Made by a program: the position numbers and the translations under genes
NCBI GenBank assembly: GCA_964583985.1
Contig: CAZOYD010000004.1
Location: forward strand, 1-64,000
DNA: 64,000 nt
Source of the DNA: an uncultured archaeon
Lineage (GTDB): Archaea; Asgardarchaeota; Lokiarchaeia; Sigyniarchaeales; SOKP01
Reading direction: 5' to 3'
Shown: positions 2,069-63,810 of the stretch, one piece after another
How the letters are laid out: each line of letters starts with the position of its first letter
Position numbering within the stretch: the first letter of the stretch is position 1
Notes under the pieces: model-generated
Seen by the model: only the letters and a program-made list of their open reading frames with translations
What the model was told of the DNA's origin: nothing
The model's database searches: none

Positions 2069-3652
2069 TTAAGAATGAGAACTTTTATTAATTTGGATTG
2101 GCTCTTCTAACATGTTTGAGATTTTGATCTTCCCATTCGCTTTACCATTTTGCCTGGAATATAATGGAACATCTTCCATTAAAGCTTTTTTATTTTTAAG
2201 TTCTTTAGGGACCCCATTCTCTGCCATGCCATTAGCTGATAACATGCTTCGACCGTTTAGAACCATTTGATGTATGAGTTTAAGAATTTTTTTAGTCATC
2301 CAATTAAACTTACCGAAAGGATTGAGATATTCCATTGCTTTTCCCATCAACCACCCCCATTGCAAGTAAAACGCGTTATAAGCCTCAGCTACCAGTTCAT
2401 AGATTTCTTGAGCTGATAATTCTTCAGTACTCATCATCGTGTGGAACAGATCATAGTGAGTGTAATTGGTGGAAGTGATCATTCCTTTTTCATCCATTTC
2501 CTCATAGAATGGTGTACCGGGAAATGCGGTAATTGGAGTAAACTGTACTATATCGAGTTTCATATCTCGTGCATATTGTATGTTTTGACGTACCATTCTT
2601 TTTGTTTCTCCCGGAAATCCAATAATGAGACCTCCAAAAACGGAGATTCCACGATCACGTAACGATTTGACAACGTGTTTTACCATTGCTGGTGTCGTAT
2701 TTTTTTTATTCATTGCATCTAGACTTTGTTGATGAACCGATTCTATCCCTAAGAATATTTGACGAAAACCAGCCTTATGAAATTTATCTATGAGTTCTGG
2801 GTTTCGAAAAAGCACGTCTACTCGACTCTGGCAAGTAAAATGCATTTTATGTTGGACCCCCGATTTTATGATGGCATCAAGAATTTTATTGGTTCGTTTC
2901 AAATTAATGCTGAAATTGTCATCAGTAAAAAAAATAAAATCAGTCTTCCAGCCTACAGCATATATCTCTTGCATGACACGTTTTATAGATTTGGTTCGAT
3001 AAGTCGGACCGCCATTAGAATTACGCCACATTTTAATTATACAACAGAAGGCGCAGTTATGGGGACAACCTCGAGAAGTTTCAACAGGCTGAGTTAAAGC
3101 TCCTAATGCTGCATATTTTCTATTTCCTAATAAATCTCTTCTTGGTATAGGAAACACATCTAAATTTTTTTCAAGCTCTCTTTCAGCATTATGAACTATA
3201 TTGCCATTACTATCTTTATATGAAAGACCATCAATTTTCTCTAAATCTTTTTCATTCTTTTCTGAACTTAAATAATCAATGAGTTCCTTGAAAGTGTGCT
3301 CTCCCTCACCTCTTATTACATAATCTACCTGTTTATGTGAAATAACTTGGATAGGATCCAACGTAGGATGATAGCCCCCTAAAATGGTGGTACAACCTTC
3401 TTCTTTTGCCATTTTAGCAACTACCAAGGCATGGCTAATTTGAGGGGTTAAACTCGTGATCGCCACGATATCAGAGCTTCGCAATAAAGTACGAAAGCTT
3501 TCTTCTTTATATTTATCCATTTTAAAATCAAATAATTCAGCATCATGTTCTGGGACCATTGCTGCAAGTGTGACTAGATTCAAAGGTGCTCCTTTAACAA
3601 TAGCATCTAATCCAGAACTTAGTTTCCCTGGATTTACATATAAAATTTTCAT
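2069..3652 (-). CDS. Cobalamin-dependent (class B) radical SAM protein
   Basis: N-terminal B12-binding domain (TILGGYHPT, VIRGEGE); SRGCPHNCAFC CxxxCxxC motif; FFTDDNF; GIES; PFPGT-like TAFPGT. Confidence 0.92.
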   Translation of the reverse strand: MKILYVNPGKLSSGLDAIVKGAPLNLVTLAAMVPEHDAELFDFKMDKYKEESFRTLLRSSDIVAITSLTPQISHALVVAKMAKEEGCTTILGGYHPTLDPIQVISHKQVDYVIRGEGEHTFKELIDYLSSEKNEKDLEKIDGLSYKDSNGNIVHNAERELEKNLDVFPIPRRDLLGNRKYAALGALTQPVETSRGCPHNCAFCCIIKMWRNSNGGPTYRTKSIKRVMQEIYAVGWKTDFIFFTDDNFSINLKRTNKILDAIIKSGVQHKMHFTCQSRVDVLFRNPELIDKFHKAGFRQIFLGIESVHQQSLDAMNKKNTTPAMVKHVVKSLRDRGISVFGGLIIGFPGETKRMVRQNIQYARDMKLDIVQFTPITAFPGTPFYEEMDEKGMITSTNYTHYDLFHTMMSTEELSAQEIYELVAEAYNAFYLQWGWLMGKAMEYLNPFGKFNWMTKKILKLIHQMVLNGRSMLSANGMAENGVPKELKNKKALMEDVPLYSRQNGKANGKIKISNMLEEPIQINKSSHS

Positions 3653-3868: not shown

Positions 3869-4870
3869 CTAAATAGCATGATCTTTGACAAGTTCGATGA
3901 TTTGTGCTTTTCTGCATGAAGATGGAACCATAATATCGTTTTCAGAGCAAAATGTTTTTAATTCTTTAACTGTCCATTTATTATAATCTATTTCTTTTTC
4001 TTCCATGGTAGATTTTACGATTGATTGTTTCTCTTTTATTTTTTCTCGTGTATTATCAAGAGGTTCAAGGATCTCGATAGCTTCAATTCCATGTGACTCA
4101 TCGTAGTGAACTCGTAATTTATGACCATCTAACTCAAAAGATCCGCTGGGTAGATTCTTTACAGGCTCCCACGTTGTTTCTTCGATATTTTGTCCAAAGA
4201 TCTCTACTTTTTTAGTAATTAATCCGTAAAGAATATTTTGACCGGTTAAAATATTCCGTCTCTTGAAATTTTCAGGTAATTCCATGCCCAAAATTTTATC
4301 TAATTTCTCTTTATTTGATTCTGCTTTTTGATGTATTACTTTAGAAGTCTGATCTTGAGAAAGTGAGTTTTTTAAGAATGACTGTTTAGCTTTAGAAATA
4401 GGGGATGAGGTAGGAGGTTGTTTTGTTATCTTAAGAACATCAGGTATTACTTCACCAGTGAACCCCGTAGCCCTTGCTAATTCTTCAAGTTCAAATCCAA
4501 ACGATCTTAAAAATTCATTGGGTTCATCTCCTTGTTCAACCGTAACCACCTTACAGCGATGTAAGTGACCAATTTGTACCAATTCTGTTTGTAACTCTTG
4601 AGCTACCCTGCTTGCAATAAATTTTTTTCTAACATGAGCTGCAGATCCCTTGTATATATATATTCTTCTAAGATCCTCCTTCACAATTATGGCTACTTGT
4701 TTAAGATGAAGGATTCCTGAACCTTTATTTTTTTGGAATTCATTTTCAGTGATATTTAAACGCTGTCGTTCACCTGTATCCAGAACTTCGAATATCATGA
4801 AGCTGTCATAAATCATTATTTCATTCTCATTGGGTGTAATAAATTTTGATTTTTCGATTTTATATTCCAT
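3869..4870 (-). CDS. Gelsolin-domain protein with C-terminal SAP/HeH-like motif
   Basis: IYIYKGSAAHVRKKFIASRVAQEL...VVTVEQGDEPNEFLRSF resembles the gelsolin repeat; C-terminal YNKWTVKELKTFCSENDI...RKAQIIELV fits the SAP/Rho-N/HeH pattern. Confidence 0.75.
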   Translation of the reverse strand: MEYKIEKSKFITPNENEIMIYDSFMIFEVLDTGERQRLNITENEFQKNKGSGILHLKQVAIIVKEDLRRIYIYKGSAAHVRKKFIASRVAQELQTELVQIGHLHRCKVVTVEQGDEPNEFLRSFGFELEELARATGFTGEVIPDVLKITKQPPTSSPISKAKQSFLKNSLSQDQTSKVIHQKAESNKEKLDKILGMELPENFKRRNILTGQNILYGLITKKVEIFGQNIEETTWEPVKNLPSGSFELDGHKLRVHYDESHGIEAIEILEPLDNTREKIKEKQSIVKSTMEEKEIDYNKWTVKELKTFCSENDIMVPSSCRKAQIIELVKDHAI

Positions 4871-5112: not shown

Positions 5113-7101
5113 TTGATTGATGATGTTATTTCGGAAGATAAAGATAAAGCATTTCTTTTTTGTAACGAAGCTATAGTGCGAGGAGCATTAGAGGCAGATG
5201 TAAAAGTAGTTGCATTTTACCCAGGTTCTCCCGTATCAGAGATTTTAGATACATTTTATCAAATCTCAGATAAGATGGATGTCAAGATGGAAATAGCCAC
5301 TAATGAGAAAGTTGCTTTGGAAATTGTTGCGGGGGCTTCTATGGGTGGACAAAGATCATTGACTGCATTAAAAAGCGTTGGGTTAAACGTGGCATCAGAT
5401 ACATTTTTCAGTTTGGGATATACGGGAGTCAATAAAGGATGCGTAATGGTATTTGCTGATGACCCTTACTGTCACTCGTCACAAAGTGAAGAAGATGGAC
5501 GATTTTTTGCAGAATATGGTTATTTTCCCTTGCTTGAGCCCACTGATCCGGTTGAAGCAAAACAAATGGTAAAAGATGCGTTCGAAATATCTGAGAGATT
5601 CCACACTTTAGTGCTCATTCGAACTACAACTCGTATTAATCATCAATCCACAATTGTACCATTAACACCATTAAATAGAACCAAATTTATACCAGGCAGT
5701 TTTCGCTCTTATAATAGAAGTTATGCTACAGTAGGGTCTCGAGCACGTGAATTGAAGGCCGAATTGCTAAGGAAAAGAGATAGATTAAGAGAAGAGTTTG
5801 AAAATTCAAAATACAATATCATCTCGGGGGATCCTTCTGAAATTGGGATTATCACATCTGGAGTCTCGTATAATTATGTTTTGGAAGTAGTTCGAAAATT
5901 GAATATTAATCCATTAATACTCAAATTAGGAACGACAAACCCCCTCCCAAATAACTTGGTAAAAAAATTTCTCAAGCCTTTAAAGAGTGTTGTTATCGTG
6001 GAGGAATTGTCTCCTTTCTTAGAAAATAAAATAAAAGCCCTATCAAAGGATGTGAATCCAGACATACAAATTTTTGGTAAACTTTCGGGACATTTTAGCG
6101 AATCAAATGAATACAACATTCCAATAGTTCTAAATGTTATCAGAGATGTATTTAACTTATCTTCGGACCATGATTATGAAAAGATCTTACATAATACTGA
6201 TGAATTGAAGTCAATCCTTCCTGTTAGAATTCCTGTTTTTTGTCCGGGATGTCCTCATAGAGCTACATTCTGGGCACTTCAGAGGGCAGTTGGGAATAAA
6301 AGTGATAAAATAGCGTTCATAAATGATATTGGATGTTATTCCATGCTGTTACTGAATGCTAAAATATATTCAAAACTCCACCCTGACGACTTACTCCTCG
6401 CAATGGGTGCGACGATTGGCGCTGCAAGTGGGCTATCCTTAGCGTCTGAAGAAAAAATATTCTCAATAATTGGAGACAGCACTTTTTTCCATGCTGGATT
6501 GCCCGGAATGATTAACGTGAGCAATAATAATGAGAACGTGATAGTAATCATATTAGATAATTCAGTTACTGCAATGACGGGACAACAACCCAATCCTGGG
6601 ACGGGATACGGACCTTCTGGGGTACCCAAACATAAGATTCCGATCGAAAACGTGTTGAAAGGAATGGGATTTGAAAATGTCATAATTAATGATTGTTATG
6701 ATGTGAAAAATAGCATAAAGTCATTTAAGAAAGCTTTAGAACAACCCGGTGCTACCGTGATAATTTCACGGGGACCTTGTGCGTTATGGAATGATAGAAA
6801 CAAACGAACACGTGGTGAAAAAATACAACCCTTTTTCGTAGATAATGAAATTTGTCGAAAATGCCATACTTGCATGCGTGATTTTTATTGTCCAGCGATA
6901 AGCATGGAATCCATGGAAACAGAATATATGGACGATAACGGAAAAATGTGGAAGGGATTTTCATCTCACATATCCACGGAATTATGCGATGGATGTGGCG
7001 TGTGTTCAATAATTTGCCCTTATACTGACCATGAGAATCGCTCAGCAAACGATGTGATAAAACCTTTTTCAAAAAAAAGGGAGGTGCCTCATGACTTATA
7101 A
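5113..7101 (+). CDS. iorA: Indolepyruvate:ferredoxin oxidoreductase alpha subunit
   Basis: NEAIVRGA, YPGSPVSEI, NEKVALE, FCPGCPH, TPP motif GDSTFFHAG...DNSVTAMTGQQ, C-terminal 2x[4Fe-4S] motifs. Confidence 0.95.
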   Translation: MIDDVISEDKDKAFLFCNEAIVRGALEADVKVVAFYPGSPVSEILDTFYQISDKMDVKMEIATNEKVALEIVAGASMGGQRSLTALKSVGLNVASDTFFSLGYTGVNKGCVMVFADDPYCHSSQSEEDGRFFAEYGYFPLLEPTDPVEAKQMVKDAFEISERFHTLVLIRTTTRINHQSTIVPLTPLNRTKFIPGSFRSYNRSYATVGSRARELKAELLRKRDRLREEFENSKYNIISGDPSEIGIITSGVSYNYVLEVVRKLNINPLILKLGTTNPLPNNLVKKFLKPLKSVVIVEELSPFLENKIKALSKDVNPDIQIFGKLSGHFSESNEYNIPIVLNVIRDVFNLSSDHDYEKILHNTDELKSILPVRIPVFCPGCPHRATFWALQRAVGNKSDKIAFINDIGCYSMLLLNAKIYSKLHPDDLLLAMGATIGAASGLSLASEEKIFSIIGDSTFFHAGLPGMINVSNNNENVIVIILDNSVTAMTGQQPNPGTGYGPSGVPKHKIPIENVLKGMGFENVIINDCYDVKNSIKSFKKALEQPGATVIISRGPCALWNDRNKRTRGEKIQPFFVDNEICRKCHTCMRDFYCPAISMESMETEYMDDNGKMWKGFSSHISTELCDGCGVCSIICPYTDHENRSANDVIKPFSKKREVPHDL

Positions 7102-7693
7102 TATCATGACCTGTGGAGTAGGTGGGCAAGGTTTAATGCTCGTTTCTAACATTATTGGATTAACTTGCGCCGAATACGGATTTAATATCAGAACTGCAGA
7201 AACTCATGGATTAGCACAACGGTCTGGTTCCATCTATACTCACATACGAATTGGAGATAATGTTTTTTCTCCCCTAATTCCATATGGAGAAGCTGATGTG
7301 TTATTAGGGATGGAAGCTATTGAATCTCTACGATATATAGAATTTTTAAAACCTAACGGTGTTATTATATTAAATGATTACGTATGGCAACCTGTTCAAA
7401 GCACCTTCGACCGTGTTAATGATTCCAAAGTAAAATATGTTACAGTTCAAAATATCATTGAAAAAATGAAAGAAATAACAACTAATATATTCATCATAAA
7501 TGCTTTGGAATTAGCTTTAAAAGCAGGTAATTCTCTAACTTCTAACGTCATACTTCTTGGTGCTCTTTCAAAAATAAAGGGATTTCCAATCCTTAAAGAA
7601 CAACTGATCTCTATGATACCCAATGTAGTTCCAAAAAAAGCTATTGATGTAAATTTAAAGGCTTTTGAGATTGGTTATGAGGAAATAAAATAA
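7091..7693 (+). CDS. iorB: Indolepyruvate:ferredoxin oxidoreductase beta subunit
   Basis: GVGGQG, AETHGLAQRSGS, NVILLGA; overlaps the iorA stop; GGAGGTG RBS. Confidence 0.95.
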   Translation: MTYNIMTCGVGGQGLMLVSNIIGLTCAEYGFNIRTAETHGLAQRSGSIYTHIRIGDNVFSPLIPYGEADVLLGMEAIESLRYIEFLKPNGVIILNDYVWQPVQSTFDRVNDSKVKYVTVQNIIEKMKEITTNIFIINALELALKAGNSLTSNVILLGALSKIKGFPILKEQLISMIPNVVPKKAIDVNLKAFEIGYEEIK

Positions 7694-56941: not shown

Positions 56942-57934
56942 CTAATCAGAAATTCCATCCTCAGAAATCGAGAAGATTGCATCTTCTTCCGGTAAATTTG
57001 GAGCATCAATAATTTTAGCAACACGTTGTTCTCCTTTACCTTTTCGTAAATAAATCCGAATTGTTGCACCATGAGCAACAATATTTCCACCTGTTGCAGT
57101 TATAGGATTTCCATAGAAAACATCTGGTTTGGCAGAAACTTGATTTGTGAAAAATACCGCCATTTCATCATACATCTCACTGATACGTAAAAGATCATGG
57201 ATATGTGTATTTAATGTTTGTTGACGATTAGCTAAAGTCCCCCTCCCGATATATTCACTTCTAAAATGTCCGATTAAAGAATCTACAATAACTAATTTTA
57301 TGTTTTTTTCTTCGATTATTTTTGAAGCTTCCTTGATAAGAAGTATTTGATGATCACTGTTATATGCTCTACCAACAACAATATTTTGGAGTACTGTTTT
57401 ATAATCCATATCTTTAGCACTAGCCATTTGAATAATACGCTCCGGTCTAAAAGTACCTTCTGTATCAATATATAAAGCACCTCCCTCAAGTCCACCATCT
57501 TCATAGGAACGTTGCACATTAACACATAGCTGGTGAGCTAGTTGAGTTTTCCCAGTTCTAAATTCTCCAAATACTTCAGTTACTGCGCCTGTTTCTAGTC
57601 CACCCCCTAACAAATCATCTAGATTATGTCCTCCTGTCGAAATTCTTCTCATCTTTTTTCTCTTTTCCCAAATCACATCTGCTGGCTTGAAACCCATCTT
57701 TTCAATATCTTGAGCGGCTTTTATGAGTTTTTCAGCTGTTTTTTCACCGATACCTGCATCTTCCATTAATCTAGAAATTGGATACATTGCTAACAAACGT
57801 ATAGATATTATACCAGAAGCCTTCAACTTTTTAAGAGTAACTTCCCCCACTCCTGGTAAATCATCCAATTCAAATGTTGGGTTAGAATTTGTACTATCAT
57901 CTTCTCCATTGGATGGAGCATTCTTCTTAGCCAT
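56942..57934 (-). CDS. radA: DNA repair and recombination protein RadA
   Basis: N-terminal HhH (LPGVG), [34 protein letters not shown]. Confidence 0.97.
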
Positions 57935-60417: not shown

Positions 60418-63400
60418 ATGAAATTATCAATAAAAGCAAGGAAACAATACCAACTTGACGACTTTTCCTTTTCTCCGAGTGGTAACGTCCTTTTTGCTGG
60501 GGATATTTATTCCGTTCGAAAGTTTATCCAAAAAATCAATCAAACAAAAGATCTTATTAGATTTCCTGAATTAGGTTTTAAAACGGGAAACTTTAATGGA
60601 ATGGCTTTAATTTATAATATTCAAGAACATATCCTTGAATTATATAAAAAAGAAACAGAAACTCCTGAATTAATGAAAGATCTCTACGTCTATCTCAGTA
60701 GGAAATTTAATGAAAAGGAAATAGAAGATAGTTTAAGAACTTTCATTGATGAATTTCCTCCGGAGAGTGTATACAATAAAAAGTTAAGTTCAACTGAATA
60801 TCTTAAGAGAACAATGGGAGAAACGAATAATAGTGCTTTAATTTTAGAAGAATTTATTCCAGTTTGGTTGGGAAATAATAATCCATCATTTTCTCCATAT
60901 TTAGAACTTTTTAACGATGAAAAATTAGAAAAAGAAACAAAATACGTAGAAATTATTAATGAAATATATAATTTCTTTGAGGAAAAACCAAAATTTGGTC
61001 CTAAAAATCAAAATTTAATAAAAATGTTAGAAGATCCAATAAAAAACCACCCATATTCCATTCGTGAGCAATTGGAATATTTACTTGAAACATGGGGTGA
61101 AATTTTAGGCGATTATTCTCACACTATTTTATTAGCGTTAGATCTTATAAGAGAAGAAGAAGCATTCAGAGGTTTAGGTCCAGGAAGATCTGAAGCTTAT
61201 GCTTATGATATGCTTGATGTAGAAAACTTTACACCAGACAAAGACTGGATGCCTAAAGTCGTTATGATTGCTAAAAATACCTACGTATGGTTAGATCAAC
61301 TATCAAAAAAATATCACAGATCGATTACTAAATTAAATGAAATTCCCGATGAGGAGCTGGATCAATTGAAGAGATGGGGTTTCAATGCATTATGGCTGAT
61401 TGGTTTATGGGAAAGAAGTCAAGCTTCAAAAATAATAAAAAATTGGTGCGGTAATCCTGAAGCAGAAGCAAGTGCATATTCACTTTATGATTATATTATT
61501 GCGTACGATTTAGGAGGTCAAGAAGCTTTTGAAAATTTAAAACAACGCGCTTTATATAGAGGAATTCAGCTTGCAAGTGATATGGTACCTAATCATACGG
61601 GTATTGTGTCTAAATGGATGAAAGAGCATCCTAATTGGTATATCTCGCTTCCTTATCCCCCTTTTCCTTCTTATTCATATTCTGGGAATAGTTTATCAAA
61701 TGATTCCCAATATGGCGTGTTTTTAGAAGATAAATATTTTAATAGAACCGATGCCGCAGTAACCTTTAAATATGTCAATTATAATACAGGAGAAACAAAA
61801 TACATATATCATGGCAACGATGGAACAAGTTTTCCATGGAATGATACGGCACAATTGAATTTTTTGATGAAAGAAGTAAGAGAATCAGTAATACAGACAA
61901 TTCTTCATGTTTCTAGAATGTTTCCAATAATAAGATTTGATGCAGCGATGACTTTGACCAAAAAGCATTATCAGAGATTATGGTTCCCCGAACCTGGAAC
62001 TGGAGGAGCAATACCGTCTAGAGCAGAACATGGAATCACAAGGGATGTTTTTCATGATGCAATGCCTGAAGAATTTTGGCGAGAGGTAGTTAATAGAATA
62101 AACAAAGAAAATCCCGACACTTTGCTCTTAGCTGAAGCATTTTGGTTACTTGAGGGATATTTTGTTCGTTCATTAGGAATGCATCGTGTATATAACTCCG
62201 CATTTATGAACATGTTGAGAGACGAAGATAACGCAATGTATCGACTAGTTATTAAGAACACACTTGAATTTGATCCCAAAATTCTCAAACGATTTGTTAA
62301 TTTTATGAATAACCCGGATGAAGAGACGGCAATTAAACAATTCGGAGATGGTGATAAATATTTTGGAATCTGTACAATGATGATTACCATGCCCGGATTA
62401 CCAATGTTTGGTCATGGACAAGTCGAAGGTTTTTATGAGAAATATGGAATGGAATATCGGCGAACTTATTGGAATGAAGAAATCAATTTAGGGTTGTTGC
62501 AACATCACGAAAACATTATTTTCCCGTTAATGAAAAAAAGATATTTATTTGCTGAAGTAAAAGACTTCTTATTATATGATTTTTTCATTGGAAATTCGGT
62601 TAATGAGGATGTTTTTGCTTATTCAAATAGGGTGGGAAACGAAAGAGCTCTCGTGATATATCATAATAAATATGCTGAAACGAAGGGATTTATTAAGAAT
62701 TCTGTAGCATTTGTAGTAAAAGATAGTGATGACAAAAAATTGCTGCAAAAAACCGTTGGGGAAGGATTGAAATTGCCAAAAGAAGGATACTGTATTTTTA
62801 AAGATGCTATCATGAATCTTGAATATATTAGACGAAATAATGATATTCATCATCAAGGTTTATATGTGGAACTACATGCTTATCAAACTCTTGTATTTGT
62901 GGATTTTAGAATAGTTCAAGATAATGAGTTTTTCCATTATGCTCAGCTTTATGATTTTTTAAATGGAAAAGGAGTATATGATATAGATGAAACACTCACA
63001 TCCATTATCTATAGACCATTACATTCCCCAATTGAAGAACTAGTAAATGAAGATATCCTACACAAAATAATTAACAATACATTGAAAGATTCCGAAAGAA
63101 AAAAATATCGTAATATTCTCAAGACCTTCTTATTTGAAGTTAAAAAATATTCAAGCAGTAACAAAAATGTAACACCCGTATATAATCAAATTTTAAACGA
63201 CATTTTATCCGCCTCAAATTTAGAGAGTGTGTTTAAAGATTATCTGAAAGATGATAAAATTAAATTTTTAATTGAAAAACTAATTCCATTGAATACAATT
63301 GATTGGGGGATACTTTATTCTTGGATCGTAATCCGTCCGCTTGGAAGAATTATTTCTGATGAGGATTATGAGTTAAGGAGTCGTAGTTTAGTAGATGAGT

Positions 63401-63810
63401 GGCATATCACAAAATATATTTACTTATTGCTTAAGCAATTACAGAAAGATGATGTTGAAAACATTTCAGAATCGATTTTAGTTGTCAAATTACTCCTAAT
63501 TTACCAAAATTGGTTTACTAAAATCCAAATGAATGTATATGATGAATCATCAATCTTCAATATATTGTTTAAAGATCCTGAAATACAACAATTTTTACGA
63601 TTTAACAGGTATCAAGATATTTTATGGTTCAATGCAGAATTTTTCGAAACTTTAACCAGATGGCTTTCAATAATAGCCATCATTAATCTTTTAAGTAATG
63701 GTGGTGAGTTACCTAAAAACCTACAGATATTAACAGATTTGCATCAAAAATGGAGGGAAACAGCAAAAACTTCAAAATATCAAGTTAATTTGTTTTTAGA
63801 AAATCAATAA
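60418..63810 (+). CDS. Large GH13 alpha-amylase family protein with N- and C-terminal extensions
   Basis: DMVPNH, IRFDAAM, LAEAFW, NNPDE; about 270-aa N-terminal and about 270-aa C-terminal helical extensions. Confidence 0.9.
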   Translation: MKLSIKARKQYQLDDFSFSPSGNVLFAGDIYSVRKFIQKINQTKDLIRFPELGFKTGNFNGMALIYNIQEHILELYKKETETPELMKDLYVYLSRKFNEKEIEDSLRTFIDEFPPESVYNKKLSSTEYLKRTMGETNNSALILEEFIPVWLGNNNPSFSPYLELFNDEKLEKETKYVEIINEIYNFFEEKPKFGPKNQNLIKMLEDPIKNHPYSIREQLEYLLETWGEILGDYSHTILLALDLIREEEAFRGLGPGRSEAYAYDMLDVENFTPDKDWMPKVVMIAKNTYVWLDQLSKKYHRSITKLNEIPDEELDQLKRWGFNALWLIGLWERSQASKIIKNWCGNPEAEASAYSLYDYIIAYDLGGQEAFENLKQRALYRGIQLASDMVPNHTGIVSKWMKEHPNWYISLPYPPFPSYSYSGNSLSNDSQYGVFLEDKYFNRTDAAVTFKYVNYNTGETKYIYHGNDGTSFPWNDTAQLNFLMKEVRESVIQTILHVSRMFPIIRFDAAMTLTKKHYQRLWFPEPGTGGAIPSRAEHGITRDVFHDAMPEEFWREVVNRINKENPDTLLLAEAFWLLEGYFVRSLGMHRVYNSAFMNMLRDEDNAMYRLVIKNTLEFDPKILKRFVNFMNNPDEETAIKQFGDGDKYFGICTMMITMPGLPMFGHGQVEGFYEKYGMEYRRTYWNEEINLGLLQHHENIIFPLMKKRYLFAEVKDFLLYDFFIGNSVNEDVFAYSNRVGNERALVIYHNKYAETKGFIKNSVAFVVKDSDDKKLLQKTVGEGLKLPKEGYCIFKDAIMNLEYIRRNNDIHHQGLYVELHAYQTLVFVDFRIVQDNEFFHYAQLYDFLNGKGVYDIDETLTSIIYRPLHSPIEELVNEDILHKIINNTLKDSERKKYRNILKTFLFEVKKYSSSNKNVTPVYNQILNDILSASNLESVFKDYLKDDKIKFLIEKLIPLNTIDWGILYSWIVIRPLGRIISDEDYELRSRSLVDEWHITKYIYLLLKQLQKDDVENISESILVVKLLLIYQNWFTKIQMNVYDESSIFNILFKDPEIQQFLRFNRYQDILWFNAEFFETLTRWLSIIAIINLLSNGGELPKNLQILTDLHQKWRETAKTSKYQVNLFLENQ

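Follow-up and report, generated by a model that had tools for sequence, protein, structure and literature searches.

A Lokiarchaeia gelsolin protein with an HeH tail: a candidate adaptor between actin and nucleic acid

Introduction

It is, to our knowledge, an open question how the DNA of Asgard archaea is positioned and segregated in actin-filled cells that change their shape. A gelsolin domain joined to a DNA-binding-type module in the same chain is a small, soluble candidate for an actin–DNA link in these cells, and the locus considered here, which lies within a window of 64,000 nucleotides (the whole stretch of DNA that we analysed) from a Lokiarchaeia genome, encodes such a combination. 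A preliminary description, made by reading the sequence, had proposed that the gene fuses a gelsolin domain, through a linker and a beta-rich domain of unknown type, to a SAP/HeH-like motif, and that the product might tether actin filaments to the chromosome or to RNA. This raises the question of what kind of actin regulator the protein is, where its tail comes from and what that tail may hold. To answer it we describe the architecture, folds and conservation of the protein, its distribution, the motifs that its clade has lost and the module that it shares with other proteins.

Results

A gelsolin domain, domain X and an HeH module in one chain

The open reading frame at 3869-4870 on the minus strand encodes 333 amino acids and contains every motif quoted in the preliminary description. 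Its parts are as follows (window positions, all on the minus strand):

3869-4870, minus strand: gene for the gelsolin - linker - X - HeH protein (1DGelX-type with an HeH tail), 333 aa
4493-4810, minus strand: gelsolin domain, ProGel-like, aa 21-126, with K82 and Q94 at the presumed calcium-ligand positions and Y73
4574-4633, minus strand: long helix (RKKFIASRVA), the actin-cleft helix of gelsolin domains, aa 80-99, nearly invariant in the family
4313-4492, minus strand: linker, variable and mostly disordered, aa 127-186, lacking DMxYVRN
4064-4312, minus strand: domain X, a helix and five strands with a long hairpin, aa 187-269, pan-Asgard
4193-4201, minus strand: hairpin tip I224-F225-G226 of domain X, a candidate partner- or membrane-inserting finger
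3875-3991, minus strand: HeH/SAP-like module, aa 294-332, net charge 0, C319

The identical protein sequence is present on 5 separate contigs, and we therefore dismiss an assembly artefact. Our search returned 251 homologues, and every one that carries a taxon name is labelled as an Asgard archaeon, mostly Promethearchaeota. The AlphaFold model predicts three separate folded units, and conservation follows the same division: mean column identity over 120 homologues is 78% in the gelsolin domain, 65% in X and 75% in the HeH, and 33-40% in the linkers. Since the protein deviates from the family at 3 of 84 conserved columns, where the family mean is 2.2, it is not an outlier. Read from the sequence, it contains no long hydrophobic stretch that could serve as a transmembrane segment, and the modelled helices all sit in soluble domains or charged linkers.

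The gelsolin domain resembles ProGel and lacks calcium ligands

Taken alone, this sequence gives a weak Pfam Gelsolin match (E 0.16), while 74 of 90 family members match at E<=0.1 and the family profile finds the Thor ProGel (7c2f) as its best PDB match, with an E value of 2.8e-6. The AF2 model of the domain aligns with 7c2f over 88 residues (Z 13.7, rmsd 1.9 A), the best 19 structure matches are all gelsolin-family chains, and Foldseek gives E 1.7e-5. The gelsolin assignment, originally made from a few short signatures, thus holds through the Pfam matches of the family, the ProGel profile match and the match of the predicted fold. ProGel is the closest relative of this domain in both sequence and structure, and both are without calcium sites; they differ in that ProGel consists of the domain alone (about 94 aa) and the 333-aa protein adds two short insertions, X and the HeH.

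Conservation within the domain is high (45 of 106 columns are conserved at 90% or more) and extends to the WxG signature: 97% of homologues have W73 and 98% have G75; this copy has Y73. The long helix is conserved from the HeH clade to Thorarchaeia, including the Thor G-X protein, and in the ProGel and G1 structures it is this helix that contacts actin (PMC7444086). By analogy with those structures, the long helix of the 333-aa protein may serve as its actin contact as well. When the domain is aligned to Loki 2DGel, the calcium-ligand residues are absent: K82 occupies the type II Glu position and Q94 the type I Asp position, which we take to be the corresponding ligand sites of gelsolin G1, and both residues are conserved at 97% or more. 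Calcium control of this protein is, by its sequence, unlikely.

Potential partners for the domain are encoded in the same genome in the form of two Lokiactin-type genes (L075:1501-2637, minus strand, and L070:713-1822, plus strand), which are 84% identical; one of them may be a paralog or lie on a mis-binned contig, and the contamination estimate for this genome is 5.25%. Three further divergent full-length actin-family genes are found there too.

Domain X and the 1DGelX scaffold

The beta-rich segment that had been noticed between the linker and the tail proves to be a real domain, in that aa 187-269 model as a folded unit. Folded alone, it is predicted to form one helix and five strands with a long hairpin and a core pLDDT of about 90; pLDDT stays below 50 in the preceding linker (aa 139-181). 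Among 120 diverse family members the tip of the hairpin carries F or L in 114 and G in 110, and this F/L-G tip is conserved across the phylum. Searching with domain X alone gives no clear PDB match (best Z 4.0; none in Foldseek at E<=0.001), a lack that does not establish a new fold, and the Atlas matches at TM>0.5 are to Asgard clusters only. Two weak phmmer matches, to an RNA 2'-phosphotransferase (E 0.11) and to streptopain, were not reproduced by profile or structure and we reject them. Duplicated X domains occur in G-X-X proteins (L050:1153-2496, minus strand; P0121, P0122 and P0125). Other arrangements are a 444-aa protein (P0241) that begins with X and continues into a zinc-ribbon-like segment, with no gelsolin domain, and a 407-aa paralog (G000 contig C37:6280-7500, minus strand) that has the same gelsolin type and a DMxYIRN motif, followed by a different domain in place of X.

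Of 300 Asgard genomes, 247 contain a match to the profile of domain X (for high-quality genomes, 81 of 89). We read 13 distant Asgard loci, and in each of them the domain follows a single gelsolin domain and a long linker. From this we conclude that the 333-aa protein is most likely built on the scaffold of the 1DGelX-type actin regulators, with which it shares the single gelsolin domain, the long linker, the domain X behind it and the absent calcium-ligand residues. It is not an Asgard 2DGel, since that protein has a pair of gelsolin domains bearing type I/II calcium sites, and the 2DGel of this genome is a separate gene (C6:78246-79271). Nucleation and severing that do not depend on calcium are properties of the Asgard 1DGelX type. 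Thor 1DGelX binds actin with a Kd of 7.7 uM and needs no calcium for severing (PMC7444086, Akil et al. 2020), with which the calcium-ligand substitutions K82 and Q94 agree, and the L. ossiferum protein B35_GelX co-precipitates with Lokiactin (10.1101/2025.11.30.690169). Our comparison with Thor 1DGelX is made through the G-X protein of genome G034, standing in for the characterised Thor sequence: this genome is Thor-like, with a 2DGel very close to Thor 7c2g and a single G-X gene. The gelsolin domain of the stand-in is 34% identical to ProGel (30 of 88 positions), where 35% is published for 1DGelX (PMC7444086), and relative to the 333-aa protein the stand-in is 32% identical in the gelsolin domain and 30% in X.

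Two differences from the known 1DGelX proteins stand out. Domain X is a folded beta-rich unit in our model, whereas it has been described as coiled-coil or disordered (PMC7444086; 10.1101/2025.11.30.690169), so that the domain X of 1DGelX gains a folded model together with a pan-Asgard distribution. The other is the tail, which consists of one or two HeH modules here, of an amphipathic helix in Thor and others, and of LPKIP in the Loki paralogs. Our literature search, whose coverage left subscription journals largely aside, found no paper describing a gelsolin-X-HeH fusion. The earlier remark that the architecture was not known as a characterised one therefore stands for the HeH fusion, and gives way for the scaffold underneath it, which is most likely the known pan-Asgard 1DGelX.

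The C-terminal segment is an HeH/SAP-like module

The reading of the C-terminus as an HeH/SAP-type module is borne out by Pfam HeH matches across the family and by a two-helix model. This copy matches Pfam HeH with E 4.1e-5 and 23.6 bits, under the cut-off of 28.9, and more weakly SAP (16.8, cut-off 23.9) and Ish1. HeH matches are found in 89 of 90 family members, with a best E of 2.3e-11, and because relatives reach such values the sub-cut-off score limits only the name of the subfamily. The model places two helices at 301-310 and 321-332, joined by an extended loop as in SAP, HeH and Rho-N folds and bearing the conserved L/K pattern; it aligns with the SAP domain 1zrj over 42 residues (Z 5.4, rmsd 2.3), a match that is weak if taken alone. 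W299, V301, L304, K305 and K321 are invariant, and 16 of 37 columns are conserved at 90% or more. The module is doubled in 62 of 120 homologues, and the tandem form is retained through a whole subclade. Its net charge has a family median of +4 (181 copies); this copy is at 0 and has C319 where the family usually has Y.

In size and pattern the module resembles the SAP, HeH, Rho-N and Ish1 families (PF02037, PF12949, PF07498 and PF10281), all being two-helix modules of 35-40 aa with T-V-x-x-L-K ... K-x-x-I/L, which are accessories fused to larger proteins and sometimes stand in tandem. What sets it apart is that it forms a subtype particular to its family, that this copy scores below the Pfam cut-offs, and that the module sits on an archaeal actin-regulator scaffold.

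A mobile module of one Lokiarchaeia family

A survey of the HeH across Asgard genomes, akin to the check that the preliminary description had proposed for the architecture, finds the module nearly restricted to one Lokiarchaeia family. In the window's family, 63 of 67 genomes match the HeH-type profile, against 2 of 232 outside it (0 of 7 in the sister family, 2 of 225 other Asgard); the sister-family genomes have G-X proteins, yet none of the 7 carries this type of HeH. The matches outside the family at L235 and L237, in genome G223, resemble the HeH-ScpA of the main family and lie on short contigs that are possibly mis-binned.

Five host families are identified, namely the G-X proteins and the following:

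L013:3640-7044, minus strand: HeH on Topo VI-B
L232:419-1750, minus strand: HeH on RadA
L019:3070-4362, minus strand: HeH on a GIFT/IFT52-like protein
L018:2927-3931 (G000 contig C40), plus strand: ScpA-like gene with an N-terminal HeH, adjoining scpB

The HeH is thus a mobile add-on module of one Lokiarchaeia family. Three of the five host families (RadA, Topo VI-B and ScpA) act on DNA, which is why we favour DNA as the ligand; the GIFT-domain host has no known DNA role. The ScpA-like protein of the window's genome has no Pfam ScpA match, and we identify it by the adjacent scpB and by its resemblance to L234 (59% identical), which itself passes the Pfam cut-off. Its reading frame starts at Ile, with no ATG, GTG or TTG ahead of the HeH, so that a non-standard start would be needed. 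An smc-scpA-scpB operon was considered and set aside, the 1193-aa open reading frame upstream giving no SMC match.

The HeH clade has lost two putative actin motifs

Two short motifs tell the clade of the 333-aa protein from its sister paralogs. Of 30 LPKIP-class sequences, 26 contain DMxYVRN, which in the sister paralogs sits directly after the gelsolin domain; none of the 34 clade members does, nor do any of the 120 closest homologues. 2DGels carry a WH2-like LVDV/LKDV motif (PMC9433394), to which DMxYVRN may be equivalent in position. The other motif is a tail. In most distant G-X proteins the C-terminus is a short helix that looks amphipathic, and one Loki branch terminates in R-R-x-L-P-K-I-P, which by its sequence resembles the WH2 'LKKT' motif. 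The HeH clade has neither DMxYVRN nor the WH2-like LPKIP tail, both putative actin motifs.

This clade has a FastTree support of 0.995 and an interim IQ-TREE UFBoot of 88. On the tree, the HeH first appears among LPKIP paralogs, some of which carry HeH and LPKIP together; the backbone among them is poorly supported, and for this reason a single gain followed by losses and several gains fit the tree alike. The window's genome retains a conventional G-X-LPKIP paralog, and the HeH-tailed gene is therefore a duplicate free to specialise.

In two members nested within the clade (L053:1279-2328, minus strand, and P0158) the HeH is replaced by an HHH_5 helix-hairpin-helix, which scores 30.6 bits in one and 27.0 in the other (cut-off 27). 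Since the window's genome has many HhH modules (14 matches), the swap is suggestive and not decisive, and may be a cheap event. By eye, an HhH is also appended to an L13e-like protein (C28:5690-6325, minus strand) and an eIF2-gamma-like protein (C36:4008-5618, plus strand) on G000 contigs.

Genomic neighbourhood

The gelsolin-X-HeH gene lies 216 bp from a radical SAM gene, and it is oriented divergently to an iorA-like gene. Across 55 loci there is no conserved neighbourhood, the commonest neighbour family occurring in 13 of 55, and promoter and terminator scans at the gene give chance-level results. The radical SAM gene is of the B12-binding kind (window 2069-3652, minus strand), and the iorA-like gene belongs to an iorA/iorB-like 2-oxoacid oxidoreductase pair (window 5113-7693, plus strand). 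Further along the window are a RadA gene (56942-57934, minus strand) and a 1130-aa open reading frame listed on the minus strand at 60418-63810; a plus-strand frame of the same span matches alpha-amylase, so that the minus-strand assignment is provisional.

Discussion

The best explanation that we can offer, held tentatively and at somewhat under an even chance, is that a duplicated 1DGelX paralog has become a calcium-independent adaptor between Lokiactin and nucleic acid, DNA in particular. In this mechanism the long helix of the gelsolin domain would dock in the cleft between subdomains 1 and 3 of Lokiactin with no need for calcium, and the HeH, single or double, would grip nucleic acid weakly and with no sequence preference, DNA being a likelier ligand than RNA. 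The flexible linkers would let the two ends act independently, and a clade member would then keep actin, as monomers or as ends of filaments, close to the chromosome more than it would sever filaments. The closeness of the gelsolin fold to ProGel, the near-invariant helix, the Lokiactin-type actins of the genome and an HeH that equals the gelsolin domain in conservation and is often doubled all back the adaptor, as do the actin binding and severing of Thor 1DGelX and the conventional G-X-LPKIP paralog that the genome retains. We infer a calcium-independent actin contact from the conservation of the helix, the K82/Q94 substitutions, the Lokiactin genes and the co-precipitation of the L. ossiferum GelX. 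With both accessory motifs of the sister paralogs lost, the clade probably has weaker severing activity and is more of an actin holder. For the HeH, the hosts RadA, Topo VI-B and ScpA, the basic charge of the family and the swap to HhH lend indirect support to binding of nucleic acid. Several observations speak against the adaptor, namely the neutral HeH and the changes Y319C and W73Y in this copy, the GIFT host, the commonness of HhH, the existence of protein-binding SAP domains, the unconvincing case for DNA binding by the SAP domain of MRTF-A (PMC8079280) and the variable gene neighbourhood.

A more ambitious version, close to what was first proposed for this gene, is a dedicated tether between Lokiactin filaments and the chromosome, by which cells that change shape would position or move their nucleoid; the hydrophobic hairpin of domain X may in addition touch the membrane. 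Such a membrane contact would fit the concentration of Thor GFP-1DGelX at ER and nuclear-membrane regions of human cells (PMC7444086). Nothing in our data is specific to nucleoid positioning or segregation, because no neighbours are conserved and SAP-type domains can bind proteins (PMC6358605), and we regard the tether as doubtful.

The last point leads to a different view of the HeH, in which its ligand is a protein: either a partner common to RadA, Topo VI-B, ScpA, the GIFT protein and the gelsolin, or an actin-fold ATPase on which the HeH docks as a second contact to actin, in place of the WH2-like tail that was lost. We consider this rather unlikely. In the Hsp70 BiP, a cleft lies between subdomains Ia and IIa that corresponds to the 1/3 cleft of actin. 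The SAP domain of MANF, an example of a protein-binding domain of this type, binds BiP in that very cleft (PMC6358605), the C-terminal domain of CDNF bound to BiP (9i5y) is among the weak fold matches of our model (Z 4.9), and the HeH sits where the LPKIP tail is in the paralogs; the GIFT host points the same way. However, the HeH is not a simple replacement of the LPKIP tail, since some paralogs carry both, and the exchange for the unrelated HhH fold is better explained by a nucleic-acid ligand than by a protein partner. In another picture, likewise unlikely, the HeH would anchor weakly and generally to polyanions, be they RNA, ribosomes, acidic lipids or DNA; it would only bias where an ordinary 1DGelX-like regulator works, bear no load between actin and chromosome, and maybe be decaying in this lineage. 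Its mobility across unrelated hosts within one family is consistent with this, as are the HhH tails on apparent ribosomal and translation proteins, the neutral HeH of this copy and the sister family's lack of the module despite its G-X proteins. Against it stand the conservation of the HeH columns (16 of 37) and the retention of the tandem through a whole subclade, and against decay, the ordinary number of deviations in this copy (3 of 84). Finally, the gelsolin domain of the clade could have ceased to bind actin and been repurposed, as in Sec23/24, in a nucleic-acid-associated factor outside the cytoskeleton. The loss of both putative accessory actin motifs would fit such a change, but the long helix kept from the clade to Thorarchaeia and the highly conserved gelsolin columns (45 of 106) argue the other way, and we think this quite improbable.

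For the adaptor that we prefer, nature supplies its own controls: the paralog of this genome that lacks an HeH, the versions in which the HeH is doubled and the one with an HhH. Eukaryotes offer partial parallels. LEM/HeH proteins of the inner nuclear membrane (Heh1/Src1, MAN1, Ish1) rely on an HeH to fasten chromatin to a structure of the cell; these tethers are transmembrane, whereas the 333-aa protein is soluble by its sequence and has a gelsolin domain. MRTF-A likewise combines an actin-binding and a SAP-type module in one chain, an analogy only, as it has RPEL motifs in place of gelsolin and acts via SRF and nuclear import; its SAP domain is not convincingly shown to bind DNA (PMC8079280). 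If the tether were true, it would be an archaeal actin–chromosome linker that evolved independently of the eukaryotic ones. Because it is found only in one Lokiarchaeia family, the gelsolin-HeH fusion would be a parallel invention with little direct bearing on the ancestor of eukaryotes.
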